DNA from: Pirellulales bacterium
Lineage (GTDB): Bacteria; Planctomycetota; Planctomycetia; Pirellulales; UBA1268
Direction of reading: 5' to 3'
DNA length: 24,000 nucleotides
NCBI GenBank assembly: GCA_041744595.1
Contig: JBGTKO010000374.1
Location: forward strand, 10,904 to 34,903
The position numbers were made by a program, and so were the translations under genes. The first letter of the stretch is position 1. Each line of letters opens with the position of its first letter. Under the pieces are notes generated by a model that was not told where the DNA came from, made no database searches, and was given only the letters and a program-made list of their open reading frames with translations. This document shows, piece after piece, positions 4,535-24,000 of this stretch.

Positions 4535-4557
4535 GCGGGCTCGCCCAACAACCCGCC

Positions 4558-4587: not shown

Positions 4588-4628
4588 AGGTAGCTCGTTG
4601 TGAACTTCCTTCACCTCCTCAAAGTCGG

Positions 4629-4658
4629 GTCCCCACGCTTGCGCGAGGGGCTTCTATG
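4629..4658. repeat. Copy 2 of the 30-bp direct repeat (GTCCCCACGCTTGCGCGAGGGGCTTCTATG)
   Basis: One C-to-T difference from copy 1. The two copies are separated by a 41-bp spacer. Confidence 0.8.
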
Positions 4659-4670
4659 GCGCGCGGCGAT

Positions 4671-5030
4671 TCACGACCACTCAGGTGGTGGCTCGATCGT
4701 GTCGGCTGGCCGCTTCCCCGAATCCTTGCGGCCGGAGCCCTCAAAGCGACTGATCGCCTTCACGGTCATGTCGGCATCACAGGTGATCTGGCAGGAGAGC
4801 CGAAGCGATGGTGTGCCAGCGAGCCCCTTGGCCGTGAGCACATCCTTTTCGGCTTTCGTCATCGTCGCGGGCTCGCCCGCCACAAACTCGACGCGGCAGG
4901 TGGTGCAGCGGGCCACACCACCACAGGCGTGGAGCTGATCGATGCCACAGTCATCGACCAGGGCGTTGACCAGCCGCTTGCCAGCCGGCACCTCGAATGA
5001 TCCGACATCTTCAACGGTCAGTTTTGGCAT
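4671..5030 (-). CDS. 2Fe-2S ferredoxin-type iron-sulfur protein
   Basis: 119 aa with the Cys pattern HACGGVARCTTC ... C (LSCQITC), typical of plant/adrenodoxin-like 2Fe-2S domains. It lies 33 nt downstream of the DUF1080-ThuA gene on the same strand. Confidence 0.75.
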   Translation of the reverse strand: MPKLTVEDVGSFEVPAGKRLVNALVDDCGIDQLHACGGVARCTTCRVEFVAGEPATMTKAEKDVLTAKGLAGTPSLRLSCQITCDADMTVKAISRFEGSGRKDSGKRPADTIEPPPEWS

Positions 5031-5063
5031 GGATCTTTTCCTTGGGATGGGGGAACGAGGAGT

Positions 5064-6620: not shown

Positions 6621-6702
6621 GCGGTGGGCCTCCGGGGAACGCGAGGTCAGCGAAAGCCGCCGCCTCGGTCACGCAGTATGCCATGCCAGGGTGCAGCGGC
6701 TA

Positions 6703-8163: not shown

Positions 8164-8289
8164 GCTCTGCCCTGCCTCTCGCCAGAAAGTCCCACCCTCG
8201 AGCCGCCGCGGATCGACGCCGAGACGCGGGCGGCCTTGAGCAGCCCCGCAGCGTCATCGACATTCCCGGCCGGACGCGTTCACGAATGA

Positions 8290-9495: not shown

Positions 9496-9507
9496 GGCCA
9501 GTATCTC

Positions 9508-9533
9508 CAGAAACGTCAGACAGAAACGTCAGA
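9508..9533. repeat. Perfect tandem duplication of the 13-mer CAGAAACGTCAGA directly upstream of the oxidoreductase start codon
   Basis: 9508-9520 is identical to 9521-9533. On the coding (minus) strand it reads TCTGACGTTTCTG twice, 13-38 nt upstream of the ATG (complement of 9493-9495), abutting the GGAG Shine-Dalgarno-like element. Confidence 0.85.
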
Positions 9534-9626
9534 AAGGATGGTCGTGGGCAAGCGGCCGAGGAGCGTATTTCGTTCGACCTTCGAGTTAGGGCAGTGTATG
9601 CCCCGCGACATTCCGTTGCACACCAT

Positions 9627-10829
9627 TCACCGCGACCGGGAGGCAAGTCTGGCAGCAGCCTTGTAGACAGCCTGCTCCACTTCGCGGGGATCACCGAAAG
9701 CATCGCGGAATTCCTGCAGCCTGGTTTCGGCCGGGTCTTCGGCGAACGGAAGCTTCTGGCCGAGTGATTTCTGATAGGCGATGAAGTCCCGCTTCCGGGT
9801 CTGAAGCAGGTGATGGGTGAGCGCCCAGGCCGCGGCGTAGGCATCGAGCGCCGATGCTGCCTGACGAAAAGGCTCGTCGCCGGCAATGATTGCCTCGATG
9901 ACACCGGGTCGGTAGGTCGAGAGAAAGTGGTCGAGTCGCGAGCGATTGACCGCTCCGATTGCCCGCCAGCCACGGGCGCTCTCGAGGTCGGGAGTTTCGA
10001 AGTAGGTCGCGATACCTTCGCTCACCCACAGGGGCACTGGAGCGAGCCGTCGGTGCATGCCACGGTTGAATGCAAGCTGATGCGTCGCCTCATGGACAAT
10101 CGTGGCAACCATCCCGCTGGCTGCCGGGCTCGCGAGGATGTCGAGGCCAACCTGCCCTGGTCGTCGGCCGCGAGCCGCCGCCACGACGTCGCTGCCGGTG
10201 AGGTCGTAGGTGATGACCCGATTGCTCATCATGTTGTAGTAGCCGACGACCTGATCCGCGGCGGCTCCGAGGTCCGTTGCCGCGTACGCCATGTAGGCCT
10301 GGCGGTCGGCAAAGATGACGACGACGAGGGGTTGCTCGAGGCCGGACATTTCCAGGCCCCCCTTCGACCAGTAGTTGCCAAAGGCATCGTGAAGTCGCTC
10401 GAACAGCGCGGCACACCACTTCGCGTAGTCGCGGGTCGTGTCGAAGCAGATGACATAGTGTTTCGTGCGGAGGAGATCGAATCCCGGGGGCAACGTGGCA
10501 AGGAGCTTTTGGCCCAGTTCGCCGTCCGCTGTGGAAGGTGGTGCCTCGCCCGGGGCCCTTCTGGCCACCGTAGCTGGCTCGAAAAGCTCGTACCTGCCGT
10601 CGTCATGCTCGAGCAGCAGCCCTCCATCGACAGCTTCCACGACGACCCTGCCAGTGACCGATCGCCCATCGGCCGTTTGGATTTCGATGCGGCTGACCGA
10701 TCGAGACGGAGAATCTTCGGTCGAGGCGGGTATCGGGGCGAGCGCCACCGTCACGACGATGAAAGCACAGCCTCGAAGCCGCTGTCGGATTTGCGGTTCG
10801 GAGATGTCACGGGAGCGGACGTGGAGCAT
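9627..10829 (-). CDS. DUF1570-like secreted protein with an HExxH motif (putative metallopeptidase-like)
   Basis: I preferred the in-frame ATG (complement of 10827-10829, MLHVRSRD..., followed by the hydrophobic CAFIVVTVALAPIPA) over the track start at 10937. The sequence contains VATIVHEATHQLAFNRG, which I recall as characteristic of planctomycetal DUF1570 proteins. Confidence 0.6.
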   Translation of the reverse strand: MLHVRSRDISEPQIRQRLRGCAFIVVTVALAPIPASTEDSPSRSVSRIEIQTADGRSVTGRVVVEAVDGGLLLEHDDGRYELFEPATVARRAPGEAPPSTADGELGQKLLATLPPGFDLLRTKHYVICFDTTRDYAKWCAALFERLHDAFGNYWSKGGLEMSGLEQPLVVVIFADRQAYMAYAATDLGAAADQVVGYYNMMSNRVITYDLTGSDVVAAARGRRPGQVGLDILASPAASGMVATIVHEATHQLAFNRGMHRRLAPVPLWVSEGIATYFETPDLESARGWRAIGAVNRSRLDHFLSTYRPGVIEAIIAGDEPFRQAASALDAYAAAWALTHHLLQTRKRDFIAYQKSLGQKLPFAEDPAETRLQEFRDAFGDPREVEQAVYKAAARLASRSR

Positions 10830-10995
10830 GGTGCGAGGCCAGAGGGCTGGGCGAGCGACAGCGACAAACGGGCGCAGGAAGCTTGGGTGGACTGAGGGGC
10901 CGAGGGGGCGTGGCCATCCGATGCACTGGGATCGCATTCCGACCGACAGATCGCTACCGTCGTCGCCCGTTCAGTCGCCCATGTCAGTCGGTTGA

Positions 10996-11724
10996 ATGCG
11001 TCTCCCAGGAGTATCGTCTCGGATGTCACCGTGCGCCGCAACGCGAACTTCATGGCTGGCCCTGGCCCTGGCCCAGGTTGCGGTCGCCCTTTTGACCACC
11101 GGCTGCATCAACTGGGCCAATCGTCTCGATCCCAAGAAAGTAGCCCTCGAACGAGAGCGGTATGGCGCCACGGCCGACCAACGGATCGTGGAGCTCAAAG
11201 CCGATGCTGCCCGTGCCAAGAAGGACGGGAGCCAAGCCACCGTGGCCTTTACCGACAGGCTGGCCACGGCCATGATCGAGGAGCATGATCCCCGCGTGCG
11301 GAAAGCAATCCTCGAGGTCGCGGCAGGTTTCGATACGCCGGCGGCTGTGGCGATCTGCAAGGGCGGTCTCGAGGATCCCGACGAACGGGTCCGTGGAAAA
11401 GCATGCGAAGTCCAGGGCCGCCGCGGCGGTCCGGAGGCCGTCGCTCTCCTCGCCACCCGGTTTGAAGCCGATGCTTCCGTCGATGTCCGCCTCGAGGCCT
11501 TGAAGCAGCTCGGAAAGCTTCGTGACGACACGGCGATTCCAGCTCTTGCACGTGCGCTCGAAAACGCTGACCCCGCTGTCCAATACCGGGCGGTCGCCGC
11601 GCTCAAGGAGGTGAGCGGCCGCGACCTCGGCGATGACGTGAACCTGTGGCGTGCCTGGGCTGCCGATCCGCAGGCCCCCGGCACCGAATGGTCCATCGCC
11701 GAAGGTTTCAGAAAGCTCTACTGA
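10996..11724 (+). CDS. HEAT-repeat lipoprotein
   Basis: 242 aa. The signal peptide ends in a lipobox-like LLTTGC. There are repeated HEAT/PBS-lyase-like units (DPRVRKAILEVAAG, DPDERVRGKACEV, DVRLEALKQLGKL, DPAVQYRAVAALKEV). Confidence 0.7.
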   Translation: MRLPGVSSRMSPCAATRTSWLALALAQVAVALLTTGCINWANRLDPKKVALERERYGATADQRIVELKADAARAKKDGSQATVAFTDRLATAMIEEHDPRVRKAILEVAAGFDTPAAVAICKGGLEDPDERVRGKACEVQGRRGGPEAVALLATRFEADASVDVRLEALKQLGKLRDDTAIPALARALENADPAVQYRAVAALKEVSGRDLGDDVNLWRAWAADPQAPGTEWSIAEGFRKLY

Positions 11725-11788
11725 CATCGCAGATGCCTGGGCATGTCAAACGGCGCGGCTTGTGCGGGCAAGGGAAGGTACTGCAACC

Positions 11789-13456
11789 ATGAAGCGCCCC
11801 GTGCTCCCGCCGGGGTTCGCGGGCCCCGCGAGCCGATACCCTCTTTGTCACTACGCGCCTGCCGCTCCCCCCGCTCACTCATCGATGCCATTCTCATTCG
11901 ACCACGCCCTCCGGACTCCGCCGTCGCGCGGGTCATCCTGGCGGTGGCATTTTGTCTGTTTCGCATCTTGTGCGATCGTCTGCGCCGTGCCGATTGCCCT
12001 GGCACACGCGGGGCCGCCAAGCAAGGCTCGCGGAGGATTCGGACGGTTCTTCGAAGGGATGACAAAGCCCCGACCGGAGCCGACCCCCTCATTCATCCCG
12101 GTGCCCACACCGCCTGGCGCCGATGAGGTCGAGCGGCTCGAAAAAATTGCGGCTCGCAACCGACCGCCAGTTCCGCGGCCAGAGCCCGCTCGGCTTCCAT
12201 CATGGGACGAGTCGTCCGACTTTATCGAGGCCGCCAAGACATCAGTTTCCAAAATCCTTGCTGATGCCGCTGCGCGGGATTATCAGCCAGCGCCGAGGCC
12301 ACCTGAAACCGTCACAGTGCCACCGCGACCGGCCGCGGCTGGTCGAACGGTTCCGCTGGTCGTCACACGGTTGGAATCCTCGGGCATGCCGGCCCCTGCC
12401 ACGCAGCGATTCGAGCGGCTGCGGAAATGGATCGGACACACGCTCGTCATGTATCAGCGGCGGCCTCTCAACACGGCCCAGCACACGCCCTGGGAAGTCA
12501 TGCACGGATTTATCGCCTTCGGAATTCCGACCCAGATTCGGGTTGGCGGGCCGGGAGGTGACCTTGCGAGCGCCATCGGCTGGTCGAACTCGGGCGGTGT
12601 CTGCCGTGGACAGGCGATGCTGACCGTGACGGGAGACCGGCTCCACGCCCTCAAGGGCGTCGGCCTCCAGGGGCACTCTGCCCAGTATCTCGCCATTCTG
12701 GCTCAGTGTCGCGTGGCGGCTGGGTCGCCGATCGTCGTCCAGGGCAAACGGTTCACCGTGGCCGATCTCATCGAGGAGGAAAAGCTGTCCTGCAAAGCGG
12801 GCACGGAGCTCACCTTCGCACTCATCGCGCTGGCCCACTACCTGCCGACCGACTCCACCTGGACTGCCCGTGACGGTGAGTCCTGGTCTATTCCGAGGCT
12901 TGTCGAGGAGGAGATCGTGCAGCCGATCCGCGGCGCTGCCTGCGGCGGAACGCACCGGCTATTTGGTCTGTCTTACGGATGCCAGCGAAGACTCAAGGCG
13001 ACCGGGCAGCTCGACGGGGCGTACCTCCGGGCCGACCGCTATGTCCGTGACTTCCAAAACTTCACGCTCACGAAGCTCCAGAACCGTGACGGCTCCTTCA
13101 GCACCGAGTGGTTCAAGTACCCGGCGGACCGTGAGGACGACATCGACCGCAAAATCCAGACGACGGGGCACATCCTCGAGTGGCTCGTGGCCTCTCTCGA
13201 CCAAGAGCGGCTCTACGACCAGCGGATCGTCGCTGCCACCGAGTTCCTTTGTCGGGCCCTCATGCGAGAGCCCTCCCGCGATTGGAAGATCGGTCCTCTC
13301 GGGCACGCCCTCCACGCGCTGAACATGTATCAGGAGCGGGCCTGGGGCGTCGTGCTGCCGGGCGGTATTGCCGCGTTCAATGGGCCGATGAAGGCAGGGC
13401 GGGAGCGGACTGTCACGGCCGAGCAGCCCCGTGCCGGCAACAGGAAGATGCGGTAG
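11789..13456 (+). CDS. Hypothetical exported or membrane protein with a Pro-rich linker and a large C-terminal domain
   Basis: I chose in-frame ATG 11789, preceded by AAGGGAAGG, over the track start at 11651, which overlaps the HEAT gene. It has a hydrophobic segment (WHFVCFASCAIVCAVPIALAHA) and a Pro-rich region. The C-terminal domain carries an LQNRDGSFS motif reminiscent of QxxDG(S/G)(F/W) repeats of alpha/alpha-toroid proteins, which is weak evidence. Confidence 0.55.
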   Translation: MKRPVLPPGFAGPASRYPLCHYAPAAPPAHSSMPFSFDHALRTPPSRGSSWRWHFVCFASCAIVCAVPIALAHAGPPSKARGGFGRFFEGMTKPRPEPTPSFIPVPTPPGADEVERLEKIAARNRPPVPRPEPARLPSWDESSDFIEAAKTSVSKILADAAARDYQPAPRPPETVTVPPRPAAAGRTVPLVVTRLESSGMPAPATQRFERLRKWIGHTLVMYQRRPLNTAQHTPWEVMHGFIAFGIPTQIRVGGPGGDLASAIGWSNSGGVCRGQAMLTVTGDRLHALKGVGLQGHSAQYLAILAQCRVAAGSPIVVQGKRFTVADLIEEEKLSCKAGTELTFALIALAHYLPTDSTWTARDGESWSIPRLVEEEIVQPIRGAACGGTHRLFGLSYGCQRRLKATGQLDGAYLRADRYVRDFQNFTLTKLQNRDGSFSTEWFKYPADREDDIDRKIQTTGHILEWLVASLDQERLYDQRIVAATEFLCRALMREPSRDWKIGPLGHALHALNMYQERAWGVVLPGGIAAFNGPMKAGRERTVTAEQPRAGNRKMR

Positions 13457-13610
13457 GGTTTGCGGGTCGAGCGGGGCGTGCTTGATCCCTCCGCCTAGCC
13501 GTCGTACGCTTCGGGCGCGGGTGTTCCCCGACGGTGTCTCAGGCCCACTCGGCGTCTCTTCCGCGCCCCCCCGGCCGGTGCCGGACGCCCGGCTTGAGTG
13601 GAGTGGATCG

Positions 13611-14540
13611 ATGATGGCAGCGAATGTCACCCCGCAGCTCGAACAGCTTCTCGAGCTGGCAACGCGGCTGTACGAAGCGACGGGCGCCGAGGCGGTCCTC
13701 CTGCTGGTCGACAGGCGGTTGGACTGGGCTCGCGTTCGGCACATTGCAGGGTCCGCGCCTCTCCTCGTTGCCGCCGACGAAAAGGCCGATCTTATCGGAG
13801 CAGAAGAGCATGCCCTCCGGACCGTCGTCCTCGACGTGGTGGGCCTCCCCGTCCATGAGCGGCTTGCCCAGTCGCTGCTCGAATGCGTGGCGGCTGACCT
13901 TCTTGTTCCGGAGGCCCAGGTTGTTGCCGTGTACAGCGGTTTTGAAGCCGACACGATCGACTCGGTGAGCATCCTCAGGCTTTCCGAACACTTGGGCCAG
14001 CTCACGGCCCGTGACCTGCGAAACCTCGAGACGAAAGTGCCGCTCGAGACGCTCAAGGTCGTGGTTGATCTCGCCGTCGAAATCGGCCGCGAGGGCCGCG
14101 AAGGCAAGCCTGTGGGGACGCTCTTTGTTGTCGGTGATACCCGCAAAGTCATGCAGGCAAGCCATTCAGCCGGCTTCGATCCCGTTCGCGGCTATGGGAG
14201 AGTGGAGCGTCGATTGAGCGATCCACGCGTCCGCGAAGGGATCAAGGAGATTGCCCAGCTCGATGGTGCATTTGTGGTCGGCTCCGATGGCACGGTCGAG
14301 GCAGCCGCTCGCTACATCGACGCCTCTGCCGAGAGCGTGTCGGTGGCCAAGGGGCTCGGAGCCCGTCACTGGGCTGCCGCGGCGATCACCCGTCGCACGA
14401 AGAGCGTGGCCGTGGCCGTAAGTGAGACCAGTGGCACGGTGCGAATCTTTCAGGACGGCGAGGTCGTGCTCCGCATCGAGCCCTTCCGCCGCGCGATGAA
14501 GTGGAAGGATTTCGAGTACGAGCCGCGGAGCGGCGACTGA
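13611..14540 (+). CDS. DisA_N/DAC-domain protein (putative diadenylate cyclase, atypical)
   Basis: I chose in-frame ATG 13611 (MMAANVTPQ...). The C-terminal half has the DAC hallmarks in order: GTLFVVGD, LDGAFVV (DGA motif), GLGARHWAAAAIT (RHR position reads RHW), and VAVSETSGTVRIF. The N-terminal roughly 150 aa has no TM helices and no DisA-type HhH. The stop lies 7 nt before polA. Confidence 0.6.
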   Translation: MMAANVTPQLEQLLELATRLYEATGAEAVLLLVDRRLDWARVRHIAGSAPLLVAADEKADLIGAEEHALRTVVLDVVGLPVHERLAQSLLECVAADLLVPEAQVVAVYSGFEADTIDSVSILRLSEHLGQLTARDLRNLETKVPLETLKVVVDLAVEIGREGREGKPVGTLFVVGDTRKVMQASHSAGFDPVRGYGRVERRLSDPRVREGIKEIAQLDGAFVVGSDGTVEAAARYIDASAESVSVAKGLGARHWAAAAITRRTKSVAVAVSETSGTVRIFQDGEVVLRIEPFRRAMKWKDFEYEPRSGD

Positions 14541-14547
14541 CGTTGCC

Positions 14548-17292
14548 TTGGCGGTGTCATCGGAAGCCACGACAAGCGTGCCTGACCTCACAGGCAAGAC
14601 CGTCTTCGCGATCGATCTCTTGTCGCGTGCCTACCAGCTCTTCCATGCGCTCCCGGAGATGACGGCCCCTGACGGCCGGCCGGTGTCGGTCGTCTTCGGA
14701 CTCACCCGCGACCTGCTCGACATCATCGAGAAGCGAAAGCCCGACTATCTCTTTTGCGGCATGGACGCAGCAGGGCCAACGTTTCGCCACGAGCGATTCG
14801 AAGCCTACAAGGCCAACAGGGCCGAAATGCCCGCCGACCTCGTGACGCAAGTTCCGCTGGCCCGGAAGCTGCTCGAGGTCATGGGCATTCCGTGCCTGGA
14901 GCTGCCTGGCTTCGAGGCGGATGACGTGCTGGCGACCCTTGCCACGCGGGTTGCCGCCGCGGGTGGTACCTGCACGATCGCCACGAGCGACAAAGACGCC
15001 CGCCAGTTGCTCAGTGACCGCGTTGAGCTCCTCAACCTCAGAAACAACTCTGCCCTCAGGGCCGCCGAGCTCGAGGCCGAGTGGGGCATCCGGCCCGATC
15101 AGGTCGTCGATTTTTTGGCGCTCGTGGGCGACGCGGTCGATAACGTCCCCGGCGTGCCTGGGATCGGTCCCAAGATTGCGGGAGAGCTCCTTCAAAAGTT
15201 TGACACACTCGACGGCGTGCTCGCCAATATCGACAAGGTGTCAGGGGCCAAGCGCAAGGAGAATCTCACGGCTCACGCGGCAACCGCGAGGGAAGGGCGG
15301 GAGCTCATCCGGCTCGACACAGCCGCGCCGATCGACATTCCGTGGGAGGCAGGGAAGCGACACGAGCCCGACGCCGAGACGCTCGCGGCGCTTCTTCGTG
15401 AATTTGGCTTCCGCAGCCTCTTGGGGCGGGTGCAGGTGAAGGCTGCCGCGCCAGCACCGGCTCGTCGTCGGCAGGCCGCCACGCTTTTTGACATGAGCGA
15501 CGAGCCGGAGTCTGAACCGCAGGCACGAGCCGACATCGTGCTGCCAGCTTCCGCTGCCGAGGAAGACGCGATCGTCGAGAAGCTCAGGTCGCTTCGTGAG
15601 CTTGCCATCTGTGTCTCGCTGCCAAAGGGGGCGACACCGATGACACGGCCGATCGGCATGGCACTCACCGCCGGTGACATGGTCACCTGGTTTTCGGCTG
15701 ATCAACTCGCACGCCATGAACCGCTCCGGTCGCTCTTGGCCGATCCAGCGATCGCCAAACGCGGGCATGATCTCAAGCGACACGATGTCGCCCTCCGCGC
15801 GCTCGGCATCACGCTTCATGGAGCGTCGTTTGACACGCTCCTCGCGGCCTATCTCCTCGAAGCCGGTGAGCGGAACCTCGGGCTCGTTGAAACCTGTCGC
15901 CGCCACGGCCTTGGCCACCTCGTGCCGGATGATCCAGCCGCCGCCGCTGCCATCGAGCATCCGTCCGATCCCGCTGGTGCCGCGGCCCACACGGCCGCTG
16001 TCGCGGCGCTGGGCGAAATTCTTCCGGCGGCGCTCGACAAGGCTGGTCTTTCGTCGCTTTACAACGACCTCGAAATGCCGCTCTCCAGCCTCCTTGCCGA
16101 CATGGAGTGTCGCGGCGTTCAAATCGATACGGCCGTTCTCGCGAGGCTTTCGTCCGACTACGCCACGCGACTCGCGGTCCTCGAGAAGGATATCCACGCG
16201 CTCGCCGGCAAGTCATTTTCAATTGCGTCGCCGATTCAGTTGCGGGAGGTGCTCTTCAAGGATCTCGGCCTCCCGGTGATCAAGAAAACAAAAACGGGCG
16301 CGAGTACCGACGCCGACGTTCTCGAAGAGCTTGCTCCGCAGCATCCGTTGCCCGCGAAGCTGCTCGAGCACCGGCGGTATGCCAAGCTCAAGAGCACATA
16401 TGTCGATGCGCTGCCGTTGCTTGTGGATCCCATGACGCATCGGATTCACACGACGTTCAACCAAACGGTTGCTGCAACGGGCCGGCTTAGCTCGAGCGAC
16501 CCGAACCTCCAGAACATCCCGATTCGCACGGCCGAGGGCCAGCAGATCCGGGCCGCCTTCATCCCAGGCGAACCGGGCTGGCGTTTTGTTGCTGCCGATT
16601 ACTCCCAGATCGAGCTCCGCGTGCTGGCCCATCTCTCGGGTGACACGGCGATGAAAGACGCCTTTGCCTCTGGCGTCGATATCCACATTCGCACCGCAGC
16701 GGCGGTCTACGGCGTCGCCGAAGATGAAGTCGATGGCGCGATGCGTCGCACAGCCAAGGCCGTGAACTTCGGGATTCTCTACGGCCAGAGCGGCTTTGGG
16801 CTCGCCAAGAGCCTTGGCATTCCACAGGCCGATGCGGTGGCATTCATCGCCGCCTACCTCGCGACGTTCGCGGGCGCGGCGGCCTGGATGGACGACATTC
16901 TCGCCCGCTGCCGGCGAGAGGGCCATGTGACCACGATCCTCGGTCGGCGCCGCGGGATCACAGGCGTCCGTGATCGTGAGGGACGGCGTGGCCCCGGCGG
17001 CGTCCCGACCCTCACGCTGCCTGAGCGCACAGCGATCAACACCGTCGTGCAAGGCTCGGCGGCTGACCTCATCAAGCTCGCGATGCTCGCCGTCGATCGC
17101 CGTCTTCGCGACGAGAAGCTCCGAGCCGCCATTGTGCTCCAGATCCACGACGAGCTCATCCTTGAAGCACCGGCCGATGAGGTCGCCGCGGTCGAACGCC
17201 TCGCCACCGAGGAGATGCGTGGTGCGATGCAGCTTGATGTTCCCCTTGAAGTATCCGTCAGTTCCGGCGCCACGTGGGCGGAGTGCGGGTAG
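14548..17292 (+). CDS. polA: DNA polymerase I
   Basis: 914 aa starting at a TTG codon; GTG 14554 is also possible. It has a 5'-nuclease domain (FAIDLLSRAYQLFHAL ... IATSDKDARQL ... GVPGIGPKIA). The polymerase motifs are present: DYSQIELRVLAHLSGD (motif A), RRTAKAVNFGILYGQS (motif B) and QIHDELILEAP (motif C). Confidence 0.95.
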   Translation: MAVSSEATTSVPDLTGKTVFAIDLLSRAYQLFHALPEMTAPDGRPVSVVFGLTRDLLDIIEKRKPDYLFCGMDAAGPTFRHERFEAYKANRAEMPADLVTQVPLARKLLEVMGIPCLELPGFEADDVLATLATRVAAAGGTCTIATSDKDARQLLSDRVELLNLRNNSALRAAELEAEWGIRPDQVVDFLALVGDAVDNVPGVPGIGPKIAGELLQKFDTLDGVLANIDKVSGAKRKENLTAHAATAREGRELIRLDTAAPIDIPWEAGKRHEPDAETLAALLREFGFRSLLGRVQVKAAAPAPARRRQAATLFDMSDEPESEPQARADIVLPASAAEEDAIVEKLRSLRELAICVSLPKGATPMTRPIGMALTAGDMVTWFSADQLARHEPLRSLLADPAIAKRGHDLKRHDVALRALGITLHGASFDTLLAAYLLEAGERNLGLVETCRRHGLGHLVPDDPAAAAAIEHPSDPAGAAAHTAAVAALGEILPAALDKAGLSSLYNDLEMPLSSLLADMECRGVQIDTAVLARLSSDYATRLAVLEKDIHALAGKSFSIASPIQLREVLFKDLGLPVIKKTKTGASTDADVLEELAPQHPLPAKLLEHRRYAKLKSTYVDALPLLVDPMTHRIHTTFNQTVAATGRLSSSDPNLQNIPIRTAEGQQIRAAFIPGEPGWRFVAADYSQIELRVLAHLSGDTAMKDAFASGVDIHIRTAAAVYGVAEDEVDGAMRRTAKAVNFGILYGQSGFGLAKSLGIPQADAVAFIAAYLATFAGAAAWMDDILARCRREGHVTTILGRRRGITGVRDREGRRGPGGVPTLTLPERTAINTVVQGSAADLIKLAMLAVDRRLRDEKLRAAIVLQIHDELILEAPADEVAAVERLATEEMRGAMQLDVPLEVSVSSGATWAECG

Positions 17293-17367
17293 GGTCCGCC
17301 GCCGTGACATGCACGTTGCGTGCGCATTTCGCACAGCTACCTGTTCACCACGCCTTGCCATGCCGTC

Positions 17368-17395
17368 GTGGCGCACGCCTCCAGGCGTGCGAATG
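17368..17395. repeat. Left arm of a perfect 28-bp inverted repeat; the arm is itself a hairpin (CGCACGCC-TCCA-GGCGTGCG)
   Basis: GTGGCGCACGCCTCCAGGCGTGCGAATG is the exact reverse complement of 17531-17558. It lies 76 nt downstream of the polA stop. Confidence 0.85.
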
Positions 17396-17530
17396 GGGTG
17401 TCCATACTCGAAACCCCGGATACCTTCGGGAAAGCGTGACTTCGCGCCACCCCGACGAGCGTTGCAGGATCTTGTCATGGGAAGCGAGCAAAAACTCGAA
17501 GATCCGAGCGACTGTTCCTCAGGCAGCCGG

Positions 17531-17558
17531 CATTCGCACGCCTGGAGGCGTGCGCCAC
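17531..17558. repeat. Right arm of the perfect 28-bp inverted repeat (CATTCGCACGCCTGGAGGCGTGCGCCAC)
   Basis: Exact reverse complement of 17368-17395. The two arms are 135 bp apart. Confidence 0.85.
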
Positions 17559-17671
17559 ATGCGTTGCGGCCGTGAGGCCAACCCCAAGCGGATGCGGTTC
17601 ACGACTCATCCTCAACCAATGGCGAGAAAGGCTCATAGCGCCCGTTTGGTCAAATAAAAGTAAAAGCCCCT

Positions 17672-17746
17672 CTCGAGTTCTTCACATATGTCCTCGGACT
17701 TTCCCATCGCGTCCGCACTGGCGACCTCGAATGTGGTCACTCTTGA
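17672..17746 (+). pseudogene. 3'-terminal remnant (last ~24 codons plus stop) of a paralog of the LuxR/GerE-type HTH gene at 19434-19751
   Basis: It translates to LEFFTYVLGLSHRVRTGDLECGHS*, compared with HEFFTYILGLSHRIRPDEAECSHS* at the end of the intact gene. In the first 14 codons the differences are three synonymous third-position changes plus two V/I swaps. The frame is closed by TAG 17636-17638 and no HTH-coding part lies upstream. Confidence 0.7.
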
Positions 17747-17922
17747 TGACGCAATAATGCGGACCACAAAATGACAGCTTGCAGAAAGTGATGGCACCGA
17801 TACGTTAGCCACACTCACCTGATAGGCGGTGACCGGTGGCCCACACCCTCCAGGACAGATCAAAAAGGGACACACCGGTGTCAAGTAAACGTCGCCTGAT
17901 TCCAAGATTCAGGAGTTGCCCC
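17747..17922 (+). repeat. Copy A of a conserved non-coding leader (paralogous to 19752-19927)
   Basis: My hand alignment shows strong blocks. GGACCACAAAATGACAGCTTG aligns with GGACCCAAAAATGACAGCTTG. TAGGCGGTGACCGGTGGCCCACACCCTCCAGGACA aligns with TAGGCGATGGCCAGTGGCCGACGCCCTCTGGAACA. CGCCT..CAAGA..AGGAG precedes the ATG in both copies. The length from the GA(G/A)TTCTTCAC anchor to the ATG is 248 nt in both copies. Confidence 0.7.
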
Positions 17923-18033
17923 ATGGGCCGCACTTTCGGCGGGCTCATTCACCTAAGTCACGAGCATCGCCAGCCAGCGTGTAACGCCGAGGATGCTATC
18001 TGGAAAGCTTCGATGGCTGGTGATGTCACGTAA
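17923..18033 (+). pseudogene. Probable decayed 5' fragment of a paralog of the heme-oxygenase-like gene at 19928 (36-codon ORF)
   Basis: The ATG sits at the same offset behind the conserved leader, with an AGGAG 7 nt upstream. The 3' part, GAAAGCTTCGATGGCTGGTGATGTCACG, aligns with GAAGCTTTCGCTGGCTGGTGGGATGACA in the intact gene (peptides IWKASMAGDVT vs LLKLSLAGGMT) after a 21-nt indel. It ends at TAA 18031-18033. The first ~60 nt align only weakly. Confidence 0.45.
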
Positions 18034-18076
18034 TTCGTTCGGGATGACTTGCTACCGCAGGGCTTTGCGGCGGATC

Positions 18077-18168
18077 GCATGCGAACGATGGCGCTTGGGA
18101 TCGTGCCACGGCGAGTCGGTTCGGTTACAGAGTTTCTCGCGGGTTTGTGCCGGGCCTACAGTTCACCC
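18077..18168 (+). repeat. Left copy of a ~92-bp inverted repeat bracketing the desaturase gene
   Basis: By my hand alignment it matches the reverse complement of 19168-19259 at 75 of 92 positions. The core CGGTTCGG..ACAGAGTTTCTCGCGGG.TTGTGCC is nearly identical. Weaker similarity with an indel extends outward by about 25 nt. The copy ends 61 nt before the desaturase start. Confidence 0.8.
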
Positions 18169-18229
18169 AACGTGGGTAGTCCCAGGTTGCGGAAGTGTCT
18201 TTGGCGGTTCTATCCTTGAGAGGTGATTT

Positions 18230-19132
18230 GTGAACGGTTGCTCCTCGACACTATCCGTGGCCGCTAAGGCATGCCCTTCGCGACGAACTGAACAGCCGAT
18301 CAACTGGCCCGTGTTGGTCTCGTTCACGCTGATGTATATCGGAGCCGCGCTGGCCCCCTTCCATTTCTCCTGGAGTAGTCTGGGGATAGCGGTGGTCCTC
18401 TACTGTGTAACTGGAATGGCCATCACGCTGGGCTACCACCGTCTTTTGACTCATCGCAGTTTCCAAACCTTTGACTGGCTGCGCAATGTCATCGCCTACT
18501 TCGGATGCATGGCCTTCATTGGCGGGCCCCTGACCTGGGCCGAAATTCATCGGCTTCACCACCAGCACTCTGACGAGGAGGAGTATCCTCATCGTCCGCA
18601 CGACGGGTTCCTTTGGTCGCACGTGCTATACGCCTTCCGCCTCGATCCCGATTCACACAGGGCACTGAACTACGTAAAGGATCTCAGGCTATCGGGAGTT
18701 CTGACTTGGCTGGAAAAGTGGAGCTTTGTCCCTCAGTTATCGAGCTTCGTTGCACTCTACATCCTCGGCGAGCTTGTCTCCCCGGCCCCCTGGGGTTCCG
18801 GGTTGGGGCTCTCGTGGCTGCTGTGGGGTGGATTTGTCCGAACCGTCGTGATGTTAAATGCTGCGGGACTTGTGAACTCCGTGACCCACATCGTTGGGTA
18901 CCGAAATTTTGAGACCAAGGATAACTCACGAAATCTCTGGTGGGTCGCGCTGATCACCTTCGGCGAGGGCTGGCACAACAACCACCATGCGCAACAGCGT
19001 TCTGCCGCTCATGGAATGTTGTGGTGGGAACTCGATCCCACGTTTTGGGCGATCCGCCTTCTGAGTGCGTTCGGTTCGGCCTGGAACATTGTTGAACCGA
19101 TCGTACCGGATCGCCTGCCACGGGTGACATGA
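18230..19132 (+). CDS. Membrane fatty-acid (acyl-CoA/acyl-lipid, Delta9-type) desaturase
   Basis: 300 aa with a GTG start preceded by GAGAGGTGA. The three His boxes are in canonical order: HRLLTH, HRLHHQHSD, HNNHHA. Hydrophobic hairpins flank them. Confidence 0.85.
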   Translation: MNGCSSTLSVAAKACPSRRTEQPINWPVLVSFTLMYIGAALAPFHFSWSSLGIAVVLYCVTGMAITLGYHRLLTHRSFQTFDWLRNVIAYFGCMAFIGGPLTWAEIHRLHHQHSDEEEYPHRPHDGFLWSHVLYAFRLDPDSHRALNYVKDLRLSGVLTWLEKWSFVPQLSSFVALYILGELVSPAPWGSGLGLSWLLWGGFVRTVVMLNAAGLVNSVTHIVGYRNFETKDNSRNLWWVALITFGEGWHNNHHAQQRSAAHGMLWWELDPTFWAIRLLSAFGSAWNIVEPIVPDRLPRVT

Positions 19133-19167
19133 GAGCCAATGATGGCCAGTGCGTGTTGTCAGGGATC

Positions 19168-19259
19168 GGTTCTACGGTGGGCCTGGCACAACCCCGCGAG
19201 AAACTCTGTGGCCGAACCGCCTCGCGGTGGGACGATCCCAAGTGCCGCCCTTCGCATTC
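19168..19259 (-). repeat. Right copy of the ~92-bp inverted repeat bracketing the desaturase gene
   Basis: It is the reverse complement of 18077-18168 at about 80% identity. It starts 35 nt after the desaturase stop and lies about 175 nt upstream of the HTH gene start. Confidence 0.8.
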
Positions 19260-19433
19260 AAACCTCCGCAAGGACGCAGCCCTCCAGGCCGGGGTTCACT
19301 CCCACGACCGGCGCAAAAAAGTTTTCTGGGTTCTGTGCGTTGTCTTGGCATGGCCGTTCAAAGCCGCCCACACGACCGCCGACCCCAAATCCACCCCCGG
19401 CCCACGCCACTCCCCCCGCAGCTGACTGCCGCC

Positions 19434-19751
19434 ATGGCCCGCCCCACAACCAAACCCCACGCAACCCGCAAGGCATCCCTCCCCCCCCTCCCTTTGGACC
19501 GCGGACATTGGCAGGCGATCGTGGCCGCGATCGGTCTTTCGCCGCGGGAAGCGGAAGTGGCCGAGCTCAAGATCCGCGGCGCGCAGCTCAAGGAAATGGC
19601 CGCCCTCCTGGGCATCGCAGTAACCTCGGTGCGGGGCTTCCAGGACCGCATCTGCGCGAAGGCGGGCATCCGCCGTCACGAATTCTTCACGTATATCCTC
19701 GGGCTTTCCCATCGCATCCGCCCGGACGAGGCCGAATGTAGTCACTCATGA
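19434..19751 (+). CDS. Small LuxR/GerE-type helix-turn-helix transcriptional regulator (HTH domain only)
   Basis: I chose in-frame ATG 19434 (105 aa) over the track starts at 19139/19149, which run through the inverted repeat and a Pro-rich low-complexity translation. LSPREAEVAELKIRGAQLKEMAALLGIAVTSVRGFQDRICAKAGI fits the GerE pattern (LxxRExEVxxL...G...KEIAxxLxISxxTVxxHxxxIxxKLG). No receiver or ligand-binding domain is present. No clear Shine-Dalgarno sequence is seen, so the start is uncertain. Confidence 0.7.
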   Translation: MARPTTKPHATRKASLPPLPLDRGHWQAIVAAIGLSPREAEVAELKIRGAQLKEMAALLGIAVTSVRGFQDRICAKAGIRRHEFFTYILGLSHRIRPDEAECSHS

Positions 19752-19927
19752 CGACGCAGTACTGTGGACCCAAAAATGACAGCTTGTGGATTGTAATACC
19801 ATGGTTAACGTAGCGACGACCTCTTGGTAGGCGATGGCCAGTGGCCGACGCCCTCTGGAACAAAACAAGAATAAACAGCCCGTAGTCGATTCTTTGCCGA
19901 CCGCCTACAAGAACGAGGAGGTATCTC
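19752..19927 (+). promoter_or_regulatory. Conserved leader (copy B) between the HTH gene and the heme-oxygenase-like gene; candidate promoter, operator or leader RNA
   Basis: It is conserved in blocks with 17747-17922 (see that feature). It contains the palindrome GGCCAGTGGCC and ends with GAGGAGG 7 nt before ATG 19928. The function is inferred only from this paralog conservation. Confidence 0.35.
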
Positions 19928-20620
19928 ATGGACCAAGTCATTGCCATCGTCGAACAGGCCAAGGAGTATTTCCATGCGGACCTCTTGAAGCTTTCGCTGG
20001 CTGGTGGGATGACAAGGCCGGTCTATGTGAGGTACTTGTCCTTTCAATACCATCTTACAAAGGGCGTGCAGCGACACTTCCTGGCGATCGCTGCTCATCC
20101 CTCACTCTCTGGCAGGCGGCAGTTTCGTAATTTCCTCTATGGCTTCGCCCTTGAAGAGGAACCCCATTTTGACATTGCCCGCCACGACCTGGAAAGCATG
20201 GGAGAAACACCGCTTCCCTGTCCGCTCGATGTCCGGTTGTGGTGGCATTATTTCGATACGGTTGTGGTAACACGGCCATTTGTGCGATTAGGGGCGACGT
20301 GCGTACTCGAGAATCTCGGTGCCGGAGCCGGTCCACTGGGGCATCGGCTGTTGGACGAGGCTCAATTCCTCAATGAACGAAACACACGATTCCTTCAGAT
20401 CCATTTTCACGAGGAACTTCCGCACGGCGACCAGATTCTGGCAGCCCTCAATGCAGCGAATGTGACCGCTCAGGAAGAGACCGACTTGGTGGAAGGAGCC
20501 AGAACAGGAGCGATCATGTACCTCCGGATGGTGCGGTGGGCGCTCGGCTGTGCTGACGTTACGAATGCGTTTTCCATACATACCGAGCCACTACCCCCGA
20601 CGCCGATCCTGTGTCCCTGA
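19928..20620 (+). CDS. Heme-oxygenase-like fold protein (iron-containing redox enzyme / HDO-like, putative diiron oxidase)
   Basis: 230 aa with a strong RBS. The sequence reads as all-helical. It carries carboxylate/His motifs spaced as in the Haem_oxygenas_2/PqqC/CADD-type families: FALEEEPHFDIARHDL, CVLENLGAG, LQIHFHEELPHGD. Confidence 0.55.
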   Translation: MDQVIAIVEQAKEYFHADLLKLSLAGGMTRPVYVRYLSFQYHLTKGVQRHFLAIAAHPSLSGRRQFRNFLYGFALEEEPHFDIARHDLESMGETPLPCPLDVRLWWHYFDTVVVTRPFVRLGATCVLENLGAGAGPLGHRLLDEAQFLNERNTRFLQIHFHEELPHGDQILAALNAANVTAQEETDLVEGARTGAIMYLRMVRWALGCADVTNAFSIHTEPLPPTPILCP

Positions 20621-20720
20621 GTATCGGGGTACACGGAAAAAAAGAGGAGCGGCGTTATCAGCCTGCCCGCCGGTGAGCCCCGACGCAGCAGATGTCGGCA
20701 CTTTTCAGGAGACCGTTCCA

Positions 20721-21488
20721 ATGCAAATCCAGGTGAACGGTGATCATGCCACGACGATCTCTAGCGCTGGCGAAGCAGCAATCGAGCCCTCGGGAAGTGA
20801 TGTCGGTCGGCATACGCTTTCTTTGGGTCCCACTCTCGACCGGATGACAATGAGAGCGCCACCGAGCTACACGGTGGAACAAATCGATCCGCAGTCTCGG
20901 ATGTTCGACCAGGTGCTTGCATTGAGGGGGCTCGCCTACCGCCGTGAGGAGGCCGGCAAGCGAGAAGAGATCGACGACTATTCGATCCATCTCATTGCTC
21001 GGCATGATGACGTCGTGCTGGGGGCCTTGCGGGTAACCTGTTACCAGCATGGGCCGTTCGAGTCACATGACCGCTATCCACGATGGCTGTTGGATGAGTT
21101 TGGCGACCGGATGAGTGCTGCGAGCCGGATGTGTATAAGACCAGAGTTGGCGGGGTGCTCGTCAATTCCACACGATCTGACCGTGCGTGGCTGGTCCACA
21201 GTGTTGCCAATGGGAGTGCGGATAGACGTTTCCAAGGCGAGGCTCAAGGCAATCCCATACTACATGAGAATGGGATACGTGTTCGTCCAGGACTCGATCT
21301 TTCGGTTTCATCACTGGGATGCAATGTGTGGTCTGATTGTCTATCCGGCGAATGCAGCGCATCGTGGCCAGTTTTGGAAGGTGTTTGAGAATATCGACAG
21401 CCCTTGTGACCTGCTGGCGTCAGTCAACGCGAATCGCTTCTCGGCTTCCTACCGTGACGTTCGGAGGGCATCCGAAGCAGCGATCTGA
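20721..21488 (+). CDS. GNAT-superfamily N-acyltransferase of the N-acyl amino acid synthase / OlsB / autoinducer-synthase-like type
   Basis: I chose ATG 20721 (AGGAG 9 nt upstream) over the track start at 20550, which overlaps the previous gene. MFDQVLALRGLAYRREEAG..EIDDYSIHLIARHDDVVLGALRV resembles the (L/F)R..VF..E.g...E.D.yD..a.HL......vG..R(L/V) signature of Acetyltransf_5/NAS-type enzymes. The later segments SRMCIRPE and AIPYYMRMGYVF fit the GNAT core. Confidence 0.55.
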   Translation: MQIQVNGDHATTISSAGEAAIEPSGSDVGRHTLSLGPTLDRMTMRAPPSYTVEQIDPQSRMFDQVLALRGLAYRREEAGKREEIDDYSIHLIARHDDVVLGALRVTCYQHGPFESHDRYPRWLLDEFGDRMSAASRMCIRPELAGCSSIPHDLTVRGWSTVLPMGVRIDVSKARLKAIPYYMRMGYVFVQDSIFRFHHWDAMCGLIVYPANAAHRGQFWKVFENIDSPCDLLASVNANRFSASYRDVRRASEAAI

Positions 21489-21536
21489 CCTCTTCCTCCC
21501 ACAGACGGAGGCGATGGATCAAGGCAAGGACCATAG

Positions 21537-24000
21537 ATGGACATGCAACGAGCGCTTCGGCTGTTGAGAGTGTTCTACCTCGCTCGCGAGGTAGATCGCG
21601 TTGAGGACGAGTGCGTGCGGCAGGGCAGGGCGGCCTTTCATGTCTCCGGCGCGGGGCATGAGAGCCTGGCGGCAGTTGCCGAGGAACTGCTTCCGCAAGA
21701 CTTTCTTCACCTTCATTATCGCGACAAGGCCCTCCTGCTCGGGCGAGGTCTGCCGGTACGGGAGTTCTTTCTGAGCCTTCTGGGTCGCAAGGAATCCCAC
21801 TCCGCCGGACGGCAAATGAGCGCGCATTACTGCTGGAGAAACCTCAATGTGCTCAGCATGGTTGGACCTGTGGGGAACAATGCATTGCAGGCCGTAGGCG
21901 TGGCAGCGGCCGTGAAGGACGACCCGCAGAAGCCAATCGTGTTCTGCACGATTGGCGATGGTACGACGCAGGAGGGCGAGTTTCTGGAGGCCATCACGGA
22001 AGCAGCACGCCATCCGGTGCCCGTGGTCCTTGTCGTCGAGGACAATGGGTGGTCGATTTCAACGGCGACGACCGGGAAGCTGTTTTACAGTTCGCTTGAA
22101 GATGAATCGCGGTTCTGTGGGATCGACTTTCAACGCTTCGACGCTCATGACCCACATATGGTGGCTGATCGATTTGCGGGAGTCATTGGTCGAGTGCGGG
22201 AAACCAGGCTTCCCGCGATTGTGGTTTGCAGATGTGCCCGACTGTGTGACCACACCAATTCCGACGAACAGACGAAATATCGAGACGCGGCCGAGTTGCG
22301 GGCGCTCGCCGATCGGTGTGATCCCGTAAGGGTGTTAGAGGCGTCTCTGGAGAATCGGGGAATCCAATGCCGTGAGCTTGCAAGGTTGAAAGAAGAGTGC
22401 ACGGCTGTCGTGGCCGAGGCGGCCGCCGCGGCGTTCCGCTGTCCGGAGCCGGAGCCCTTTTTTGGTTCAAAGTGTGCCTTACCGCCGACTCGCTTTGGCG
22501 ACGCGGTCACATCCGAGCTCGCGGATGGCCCGCGTCTGACGATGCGGGAGGCCATTAATGAAGTATTACGGTTCCGATTGACGCATGACGACCGGACTGT
22601 GCTGTTAGGGGAGGACATTGAGGATCCGAAAGGAGACGTGTTTGGGGTCACCCGCGGGCTGAGCACCGAATTCCCGGGAAGAGTGTCGAATTCCGCATTG
22701 TCGGAGGCGACAATTCTTGGTGTCAGCATCGGGCGGGCGTTGGCTGGGCAACGGCCTGTGGCTTTCATCCAGTTTGCCGATTTCCTGCCGCTGGCGTTCA
22801 ACCAAATTGCGACCGAGCTTGGGAGCATGTACTGGCGCACATGTGGCGCATGGCAGTGTCCTGTGATTGTCATGATCGCGTGTGGTGGGTATCGTCCTGG
22901 CCTCGGGCCGTTCCACAGCCAGACCCAGGAATCGCTGGGCGTGCATGTGCCAGGGCTCGATGTTGTGATGCCATCGACATCGGCAGACGCGGCAGGCTTG
23001 CTCAATGCGGCACTTGAAAATGGCAGACCAACGCTCTTTTTCTACCCGAAGGCGTTGCTGAATTCTTCGGATCACGCGACCGCATTGAGGCCGCAATCGC
23101 ACTACGTGCCACTCGGGCAAGCCAGTTTCTTGTGCCACGGCGACGAGCTCACACTCGTCAGTTGGGGCGCGGCTCTTCATGAGTGCGAGAAAGCGGTCGA
23201 TGTGTTGACGAAGCATGGGATCAGCGTCGATCTAATTGACTTGCGGTCGCTCTCACCGTGGGACCACGAGTCTGTCTGTGCCTCCGCGGCGCGGACGGGC
23301 CGACTTCTCGTCGTGCATGAGGACAATATCACGTGCGGCTTTGGGGCGGAGGTGGTCGCTACGGTGGGAGAGCTGGTAGATCGGCCCGTAAAAGTGAGTC
23401 GTATTGCCAGAGCGGATACCTACATTCCATTTCATTTTCCCAGTCAGATGGAGATTCTGCCGTCCTGGAAGCGTGTGCTGAACGCGGCTGCTTCGATGCT
23501 CGGATGGGAGTTGACATGGACGATGGGCTCCGAGGCCGATGCCGCTTTCTGCGAGGTTTCCGCTTTGGGATCGGGGCCGGCCGACGATGTGGTGGAGGTG
23601 GTGGCCCTTCGTGTGGGCATCGGCGACGAAGTGGTGGTGGGTCAGTTGCTAGCCGAAGTTGAAGCGGCGAAATCGGTGGTGGAGATTGTCGCTGGCGTTG
23701 CTGGCGTCGTTTCAGACATTGGGGTGCGCGAGGGGGAGCATGTTCGGGTCGGGCAGAGCTTGTTGCGAATACGCCGCTCCGGCAATCTCGCGAGTCAGGC
23801 AGCCCATGATGTCAATAGGAAGGAGCTCACCATTCCGGTTTTGCGACGGAGCCGTCGGGAATTAAGCAGCCGCACCACGACGGCCGAGGCGGGATCACGG
23901 CATCCAGAGCCTATTGTTCTGGCCAGGGAATCGAATGGAGTGAGGAACGGGGAACTGATCTATCTCTCGCGGCCGAGCGTCGTGTTTGGCGGCCGGTTGG
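21537..24000 (+). CDS. Fused 2-oxoacid dehydrogenase E1 alpha + E1 beta + lipoyl/biotinyl-like domain protein, continuing past the window end
   Basis: This ORF is not in the supplied track because it has no stop in the window. I translated it by hand from ATG 21537 (TAG immediately upstream, AAGGA 6 nt before) and found no stop through 24000. The alpha part has HVSGAGHE and the TPP motif GDGTTQEGEFLEAITEAARHPVPVVLVVEDNGWSIS. The beta part has MREAINEVLRFRLTHDDRTVLLGEDIEDPKGDVFGVTRGL...RVSNSALSEATILGVSIGRALAGQRPVAFIQFADF. A lipoyl-like domain follows, with IGDEVVVGQLLAEVEAAKSVVEIVAGVAGVVSDIGVREGEHVRVGQ (Lys codon 23670-23672). After that come a linker and the start of a further domain. The minus-strand ORFs listed in this interval are antisense shadows. 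Confidence 0.85.
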   Translation, partial: MDMQRALRLLRVFYLAREVDRVEDECVRQGRAAFHVSGAGHESLAAVAEELLPQDFLHLHYRDKALLLGRGLPVREFFLSLLGRKESHSAGRQMSAHYCWRNLNVLSMVGPVGNNALQAVGVAAAVKDDPQKPIVFCTIGDGTTQEGEFLEAITEAARHPVPVVLVVEDNGWSISTATTGKLFYSSLEDESRFCGIDFQRFDAHDPHMVADRFAGVIGRVRETRLPAIVVCRCARLCDHTNSDEQTKYRDAAELRALADRCDPVRVLEASLENRGIQCRELARLKEECTAVVAEAAAAAFRCPEPEPFFGSKCALPPTRFGDAVTSELADGPRLTMREAINEVLRFRLTHDDRTVLLGEDIEDPKGDVFGVTRGLSTEFPGRVSNSALSEATILGVSIGRALAGQRPVAFIQFADFLPLAFNQIATELGSMYWRTCGAWQCPVIVMIACGGYRPGLGPFHSQTQESLGVHVPGLDVVMPSTSADAAGLLNAALENGRPTLFFYPKALLNSSDHATALRPQSHYVPLGQASFLCHGDELTLVSWGAALHECEKAVDVLTKHGISVDLIDLRSLSPWDHESVCASAARTGRLLVVHEDNITCGFGAEVVATVGELVDRPVKVSRIARADTYIPFHFPSQMEILPSWKRVLNAAASMLGWELTWTMGSEADAAFCEVSALGSGPADDVVEVVALRVGIGDEVVVGQLLAEVEAAKSVVEIVAGVAGVVSDIGVREGEHVRVGQSLLRIRRSGNLASQAAHDVNRKELTIPVLRRSRRELSSRTTTAEAGSRHPEPIVLARESNGVRNGELIYLSRPSVVFGGRL

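Follow-up and report, generated by a model that had tools for sequence, protein, structure and literature searches.

A 98-nt inverted repeat encloses a fatty-acid desaturase gene at the head of a putatively acquired gene island in a Pirellulales bacterium

The stretch of DNA analysed here (hereafter, the window) comprises 24,000 nucleotides of contig JBGTKO010000374.1 in the genome assembly GCA_041744595.1 of a Pirellulales bacterium and contains, downstream of polA, a fatty-acid desaturase gene tightly bracketed by a long inverted repeat (IR). A repeat search of the window placed the two arms at 18065-18162 (left arm, IR-L) and 19174-19271 (right arm, IR-R); each is 98 nt long, and the arms are 83% complementary, with 1011 nt between them. 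The alignment is ungapped, with 81 of the 98 positions complementary, and BLASTN comparison of the window with itself recovered the same pair at 82.65% identity over 98 ungapped positions (E=3.3e-22). Apart from this pair, just three repeats in the window reached E<1e-3 in the self-comparison, and no third copy of the arm was found within it. The left arm ends 67 nt upstream of the GTG start codon of the desaturase gene; the right arm starts 41 nt past its stop codon and ends 163 nt before the ATG of a small regulator gene. The IR-bounded segment measures 1,207 bp in all, and the desaturase is the sole open reading frame (ORF) that the arms enclose. A first-pass annotation of this DNA had described a repeat of about 92 bp with 75 matching positions, and a recount at 18077-18168 versus 19168-19259 yielded exactly 75 of 92 in the same register; the gaps of 61 and 35 nt that it gave on either side of the ORF follow from those coordinates and become 67 and 41 nt with the computed arm ends. 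The arm pair is most likely neither an active mobile element nor a programmed switch.

The enclosed gene (18230-19132, plus strand) encodes an intact membrane fatty-acid desaturase of the acyl-CoA/acyl-lipid delta-9 type, 300 amino acids (aa) long (PF00487, E=3.4e-19), in which the three histidine boxes, HRLLTH, HRLHHQH and HNNHH, are intact. The GTG start codon (18230) is preceded by GAGAGGTGA, with the Shine-Dalgarno (SD) sequence at approximately 18217-18226. The nearest homologue outside the source genome, encoded in locus L001, shows 75% aa identity.

The arms differ at 17 positions, which comprise 8 transitions and 9 transversions (hand count) and are distributed 8/5/4 over the codon phases. 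All reading frames are open across the arms, which consist of GC-rich DNA. In the only frame with an ATG shared by both arms, about 9 changes are non-synonymous and 4 synonymous (hand count), so that no peptide appears to be under conservation, in agreement with the first-pass view that the arms are conserved at the nucleotide rather than the protein level; the peptide ends differ as well, and a coding role of the arms was rejected. Two small ORFs start at the shared ATG, one of 46 aa running on the plus strand from the left arm (18079-18219) and one of 32 aa running on the minus strand from the right arm (19257-19159), the latter with a perfect GGAGG-N5-ATG ahead. The stop codon of the former (18217-18219) overlaps the desaturase SD sequence, 10 nt ahead of the GTG, a layout typical of translational coupling. 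With non-synonymous changes dominating, the two ORFs are probably not real genes.

Some features first ascribed to the arms did not survive closer alignment. The nearly perfect 40-nt core is absent: the best 40-nt window contains 36 matches of 40, and the longest perfect run is 17 nt, the length expected from 17 mismatches scattered over 98 positions (P=0.46). There is thus no distinct core, and a specially conserved core was rejected as a candidate. The weaker similarity said to extend about 25 nt outward in fact covers 12 nt; identity is 11/25 in 18052-18076 and 6/25, the background level, further out. Folded singly, on either strand, the arms have z-scores of -0.05 to 0.65 relative to shuffled sequences (0.23 for IR-L, 0.09 and -0.05 for IR-R), and the two arms fold differently from each other. 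Rfam searches of the window (gathering threshold) and of 17200-20100 (E<=1) yielded no match, and a structured RNA within each arm was likewise rejected. An assembly artefact of the perfect-palindrome type was dismissed, given the mismatches between the arms and their location inside the contig.

The desaturase and regulator genes are themselves enclosed by a direct repeat (DR), 17668-17866 and 19673-19871, with 73.9% identity over 199 ungapped nt (E=8e-30, self-BLAST), and weaker similarity runs on to 18022 and 20006 (repeat family D1, 17999-18022 versus 19983-20006). The resulting layout is DR1, IR-L, desaturase, IR-R, regulator, DR2. Copy 1, delimited by self-BLAST and repeat search (17668-18022, plus strand), is degenerate: it consists of the last ~27 codons of the regulator behind stop codons, ~180 nt of non-coding DNA, an SD sequence with an ATG, and a stump of about 33 to 36 codons of the next gene. 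Copy 2 (19673-20006, plus strand) is the functional one and spans the regulator C-terminus, the intergenic region and the start of the following gene, denoted X. The earlier proposal that the desaturase lies between two copies of a regulator module is thereby confirmed, at 74% identity. Given that a decayed direct repeat is present besides the inverted one, the locus must have been rearranged or duplicated at least twice. The direct repeat includes conserved non-coding blocks, for example AAAATGACAGCTTG, which may supply the desaturase with a second copy of the cluster promoter or leader.

The repeats lie at the left end of a much larger non-syntenic island. PolA (14548-17292) has relatives at 80-85% identity, and the contigs of three of these (L047, L048 and L050) are collinear with the window from 4304 to 17292; nucleotide similarity ends within three bases of the polA stop codon (17292). 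Downstream of polA, the relatives have coaE, rho, ribH, nusB and ftsY, whereas the window has the island cluster. The remainder of the window, 17293-24000, is not syntenic with the relatives and has a lower GC content, which falls from ~64-65% in the syntenic part to ~55-58% past polA (56-57% in the desaturase, X and the N-acyl amino acid synthase (NAS)-like gene, against 64% in the syntenic part). The left edge of the island, recognized by the synteny break and the drop in GC, is the segment 17293-17667. Since non-synteny and low GC both begin there, the foreign DNA is the whole stretch from 17293 and not the 1.2 kb between the arms.

The order within the island is direct-repeat copy, IR-flanked desaturase, LuxR-like regulator, X, FeeM-like gene and a fused dehydrogenase gene, all on the plus strand. 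The regulator (19434-19751, 105 aa) is a small helix-turn-helix protein of the LuxR/GerE type; its GerE match (E=2e-4, 21.3 bits) falls just below the cut-off of 23.5 bits. Gene X (19928-20620) encodes a 230-aa protein that homologue searches assign to the haem-oxygenase-like family of iron-containing redox enzymes; it has many homologues at 60-79% identity, one of them with PF14518, and is 49% identical to a 230-aa protein encoded next to the desaturase in L001. The FeeM-like gene (20550-21488) encodes a NAS-like protein of the GNAT type, with a weak match to the Pfam family Acetyltransf_5; the true start of this ORF is probably near 20850, and its product is 54-59% identical to proteins encoded beside X in loci L034, L035 and L038. 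The last gene (21537-24000, continuing past the window end) encodes a 2-oxoacid dehydrogenase with fused E1 alpha and beta parts and a lipoyl domain (Pfam E1_dh, 1.4e-41; Transket_pyr; Transketolase_C; Biotin_lipoyl). Taken together, these genes make 17293-24000 a candidate cluster for the biosynthesis of a modified N-acyl amino acid lipid.

Several other features in this part of the window, and one upstream, deserve mention. Just past the polA stop codon lies a perfect 28-nt inverted repeat (GTGGCGCACGCCTCCAGGCGTGCGAATG, 17368-17395 and 17531-17558, 135 nt apart), and each of its arms forms a 9-bp palindrome of its own (CGCACGCCT-NN-AGGCGTGCG). Short and perfect, this pair is a better match to an inverton or a small miniature inverted-repeat transposable element (MITE) than is the 98-nt repeat; a pair of hairpin terminators is another possibility. 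The right arm and the regulator ATG are separated by a C-rich spacer of 162 nt (19272-19433, 67% GC) with runs such as CCCCCCCC. The regulator frame is open back to 19149, through the right arm; the upstream translation is of low complexity, rich in Pro and Arg, and unlikely to be coding. In the syntenic part, a 30-nt direct repeat (4558-4587 and 4629-4658, 97% identical, 71 nt from start to start) falls inside the overlapping ORFs 4329-5000 and 4600-4938.

X and the FeeM-like gene co-occur in other planctomycete-type contigs (L034, L035 and L038), in a gene order unlike that of the window. Two of these contigs, L034 (4018-6485) and L035 (2675-4184), are collinear over the genes for the FeeM-like protein, the haem-oxygenase-like protein, a SnoaL protein and a methyltransferase of the PEMT/ICMT type, and differ by a single desaturase gene, which is located between X and SnoaL in L034 and is absent from L035; in L001, the desaturase occupies yet another position. 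This variation in presence and position among L034, L035 and L001 indicates that the desaturase works with the cluster as a functional partner and enters or leaves it as a single gene. The orthologous desaturase loci in L001 (75% aa identity) and L034 (57% aa identity) have no flanking inverted repeat, and no desaturase-bearing relative closer than L001 was found in the databases searched. Neither the arms nor the direct repeat showed any DNA similarity to L001 or to L034-L040. By these comparisons, the inverted repeat is peculiar to one lineage.

The reading that we favour, with about even confidence, is that the arms are a private inverted duplication, left behind by the recruitment of the desaturase to the front of an acquired cluster for an N-acyl-amino-acid-type lipid and now decaying neutrally. 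Under this scenario, a rearrangement would have placed the desaturase, an optional tailoring gene, in front of the horizontally acquired lipid island downstream of polA; the inverted duplication of ~100 bp would have arisen in the same series of rearrangements, and the arms would since have drifted neutrally to 83% identity. The composition of the mismatches (8 transitions, 9 transversions), their 8/5/4 distribution over codon phases and the chance-like longest run suggest that they are neutral.

Several observations weigh against this scenario. An inverted repeat of 98 nt that neatly brackets one intact gene, in positions like those of untranslated regions (UTRs), is no common accident, and the scar reading names no mechanism for making the duplication. 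The arms have diverged by 17%, against 26% for the direct repeat (Fisher P=0.11, not significant), and this lower divergence could hint at constraint or gene conversion. Of the 8 transitions, 6 give G·U pairs in the sense RNA and 2 in the antisense RNA (one-sided P ~0.14, n=8); although not significant, this bias is in the direction expected under selection of a sense-strand stem. Finally, the source genome may contain further copies of the arm elsewhere, as the searches covered just its 24-kb window.

The position of the arms, in what would be the 5' leader and the 3' trailer of a same-strand ORF, implies that any present-day effect is most likely exerted at the mRNA level. Co-folding of the arms, one of the checks proposed in the first-pass annotation, yielded a duplex of -162.5 kcal/mol for the sense strand, versus -147.8 kcal/mol for the antisense strand; the former contains 81 Watson-Crick and 6 G·U pairs, the latter 81 and 2. 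In the minimum free energy folds of 18040-19300 and 17760-19760, 84 of the 98 bases of the left arm have their partner in the right arm. The uninterrupted helices of the duplex measure 27, 16 and 15 bp. No intrinsic terminator was predicted on the plus strand between the arms, outside the ORF. Given this pairing and the absence of a predicted terminator between the arms, any transcript that extends from upstream of 18065 to past 19271 would form the stem. If co-transcribed, the arms would close into an imperfect stem of ~98 bp with helices of up to 27 bp, a plausible RNase III substrate. In the favoured reading, the present-day effect would most likely be on the processing or stability of the desaturase mRNA, as a by-product and not as the reason for the repeat.

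The suggestion that the desaturase mRNA has complementary 5' and 3' ends thus holds as far as the pairing of the arms in the predicted fold of the whole mRNA is concerned; its extension to a temperature-dependent element does not, and the stem makes no contact with the ribosome-binding site. The net energy of the duplex is -112.6 kcal/mol at 4 °C, -86.6 kcal/mol at 37 °C and -37.8 kcal/mol at 90 °C; with the duplex still favoured by 38 kcal/mol at 90 °C, a melting RNA thermometer is ruled out. The left arm ends at 18162, the SD sequence lies at ~18217-18226 and the start codon at 18230, so that the stem, which ends 67 nt before the start codon, is unable to mask the ribosome-binding site. L001 and L034, the orthologous loci available for the proposed search for compensatory changes, are without any such repeat.

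These data also bear on a different explanation, that the repeat is a selected RNA element. In this case, the paired UTR ends of the desaturase message would form a stem that is cut by RNase III or shields the message against exonucleases. In this way, a monocistronic desaturase mRNA would be excised from, or tuned within, transcripts that read through from the duplicated promoter region upstream to the regulator gene. The appeal of this explanation lies in the placement of the arms (67 nt ahead of the start codon and 41 nt past the stop codon, same strand), in the lack of predicted terminators in the non-coding DNA that separates them, in the sense-strand advantage in duplex energy (-162.5 versus -147.8) and in G·U pairs (6 versus 2), and in helices of 27, 16 and 15 bp, long enough for RNase III. 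There are also precedents: in icaR mRNA, pairing of the 5' and 3' UTRs creates an RNase III substrate (PMC3868564), and the stability of hbs mRNA is under the control of a 5'/3' UTR interaction (PMC5737220). Nevertheless, we regard this explanation as rather unlikely. The repeat is not conserved, being absent from the orthologous desaturase loci L001 and L034; 11 of the 98 positions are unpaired in the sense RNA, none with a compensatory change, and the G·U bias is not significant; the stem is clear of the SD sequence and the start codon. Moreover, no regulatory purpose requires 98 bp. Still more doubtful, in our judgement, is the specific version in which a functional 5'/3' closure of ~98 bp encompasses the complete mRNA, RNase III cuts the monocistronic desaturase message out of read-through, and the arms are a recent inverted duplication that is still evolving.

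Tight inverted arms around a single gene are also the geometry of a mobile element, and the first-pass annotation had proposed a non-autonomous, MITE-like element that delivered the desaturase as cargo. The searches for copies used the 17-mer core and degenerate blocks of 20-22 bases of the arm. Among 185,579 GTDB species genomes, the 17-mer had 32 single matches, a number consistent with chance, none of which extended past ~21-23 nt; no locus contained two 17-mer matches, so that the source genome evidently lies outside this collection. In JGI metagenomes, a block with 22 specified bases had no matches, and a second block had 6, which fell into three unrelated gene groups without flanking similarity. 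No arm copy was found in viral contigs or plasmids. A target-site duplication was not found either: within ±8 nt of the arm ends, perfect direct repeats reach no more than 5 nt, a length equalled or exceeded by ~35% of random position pairs. In line with the original remark that no recombinase is in view, the large ORFs of the window contain no transposase, integrase, invertase or recombinase Pfam domain; no tRNA gene was found in the window. Hence the copy count and target-site check that had been proposed turned up neither further copies in the collections searched nor a duplication. Of the hallmarks of MITEs and non-autonomous transposons, the terminal inverted repeats (TIRs) are present and the multiple copies and target-site duplication are missing, and the foreign DNA is not bounded by the inverted repeat; the proposal of a MITE-like cargo element is therefore not upheld. 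An integron cassette does not fit either, in that the arms do not fold like an attC site (z -0.05 to 0.65) and no integrase is encoded in the window.

A less demanding version is that the arms are remnants of mobile-element ends, either decayed TIRs of a non-autonomous cargo transposon or two inverted MITE copies of ~100 bp, left, for instance, by intramolecular replicative transposition, the element having once moved the desaturase. The geometry of the 1,207-bp segment would fit, transposase genes adjoin the related clusters (Transposase_mut in L034 and DDE_3 in L035), and the desaturase is gained and lost singly across the cluster family. We nonetheless consider such an origin unlikely. No other copy was found in the collections searched, there is no target-site duplication and no transposase in the 24 kb, and the island of deviating composition extends far beyond the IR-bounded segment. 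Inspection by eye showed no inverted repetition between the two ends of either arm, so the arms lack terminal repeats of their own. To our knowledge, TIRs of 98 bp would also be unusually long for bacterial elements.

The other DNA-level proposal of the first-pass annotation, an on/off switch, amounts to a whole-gene inverton, in which a recombinase encoded elsewhere would flip 18163-19173 and thereby cut the desaturase off from its upstream promoter. The inverted repeats do flank a complete gene with its own ribosome-binding site, and invertases can act from a distance. No invertase or other recombinase is encoded nearby, that is, within the 24-kb window, although one might act from elsewhere. 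The arms are just 83% identical, with a longest perfect block of 17 nt; active inversion sites, as a rule, are short with almost no differences, and a longer stretch of perfect identity is required for homologous recombination. An inverton would also leave unexplained why the repeated site is 98 nt long rather than short. We deem this explanation highly improbable.

It is also conceivable that the repeat is a duplicated regulatory region acting at the DNA level, one arm being a copy of the upstream control region of the regulator gene that was placed before the desaturase and brings both genes under joint control. The right arm is located 163 nt upstream of the regulator ATG and the left arm 67 nt upstream of the desaturase, and the GC content of the arms (62-65%) is closer to that of the regulator block (65-67%) than to that of the desaturase (57%), although a GC estimate from 98 nt is too noisy to carry weight. 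Yet the arms are oppositely oriented relative to the genes downstream of them, have no promoter-like hexamers and share no motif with the non-coding part of the direct repeat. A shared operator was rejected, as the arms and the duplicated intergenic region have no k-mer in common above the shuffle level. Such a control region is, in our view, very unlikely.

If the arms are indeed the scar of an inverted duplication, the locus offers a clean record of an optional tailoring gene spliced into an acquired lipid island in an uncultured planctomycete, a finding of modest value, and illustrates that an inverted repeat can bracket a gene neatly without being a transposon or a switch. If, on the other hand, the stem is put to use, it would be an unusually long 5'/3' pairing around a whole bacterial mRNA and a natural test case for the RNase III-dependent excision of the message of one gene from an operon transcript.

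Comparison with known systems delineates what is shared and what is not. Invertons of the kind detected by PhaseFinder-type analysis (PMC11602134, PMC11892184) similarly consist of inverted repeats flanking a DNA segment; they typically flank a promoter or a gene fragment, with an invertase nearby, whereas here the arms are 98 nt long and 83% identical, the flanked segment contains a whole gene of 0.9 kb, and the 24 kb encode no invertase. As in MITEs and non-autonomous TIR transposons, inverted arms bracket a short, transposase-free segment; unlike these elements, the arm pair has neither additional copies nor a target-site duplication, is far longer than the usual TIRs and would enclose a cargo gene. 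The island itself resembles the NAS clusters of Planctomycetota that direct the synthesis of stieleriacine-type N-acyl tyrosines (PMC12479983), in which a FeeM-like NAS gene is likewise accompanied by tailoring genes. The text of that study mentions neither a desaturase nor an oxygenase (PMC12479983); desaturation of the acyl chain would be a plausible tailoring step in a NAS cluster.

The mRNAs with 5'-3' UTR pairing, icaR of Staphylococcus aureus (PMC3868564) and hbs of Bacillus subtilis (PMC5737220), share with the desaturase locus the presence of complementary same-strand sequences on both sides of one ORF; in the case of icaR, the duplex has been shown to be an RNase III substrate, as the desaturase stem would be. 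The known cases pair over ~7-20 nt and act on the SD region or on a nuclease entry site, whereas the desaturase arms are complementary over 98 nt, end 67 nt from the start codon, well clear of the SD sequence, and are conserved neither as a repeat nor by covariation in the orthologues L001 and L034. The fold-back of hok mRNA through fbi and tac is a further case of 5'-3' pairing. In the architecture of the stem, the parallel extends to the precursors of rRNA, in which the sequences flanking 16S and 23S rRNA pair over a long range and are cut by RNase III, an arrangement conserved across bacteria. In both, a whole functional RNA is enclosed by a long imperfect helix whose strands lie ~1 kb or more apart; the rRNA stems are conserved and belong to rRNA operons, whereas the desaturase stem is confined to one locus and would surround an mRNA. 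Should it prove functional, it would be an mRNA counterpart of the rRNA maturation stems.

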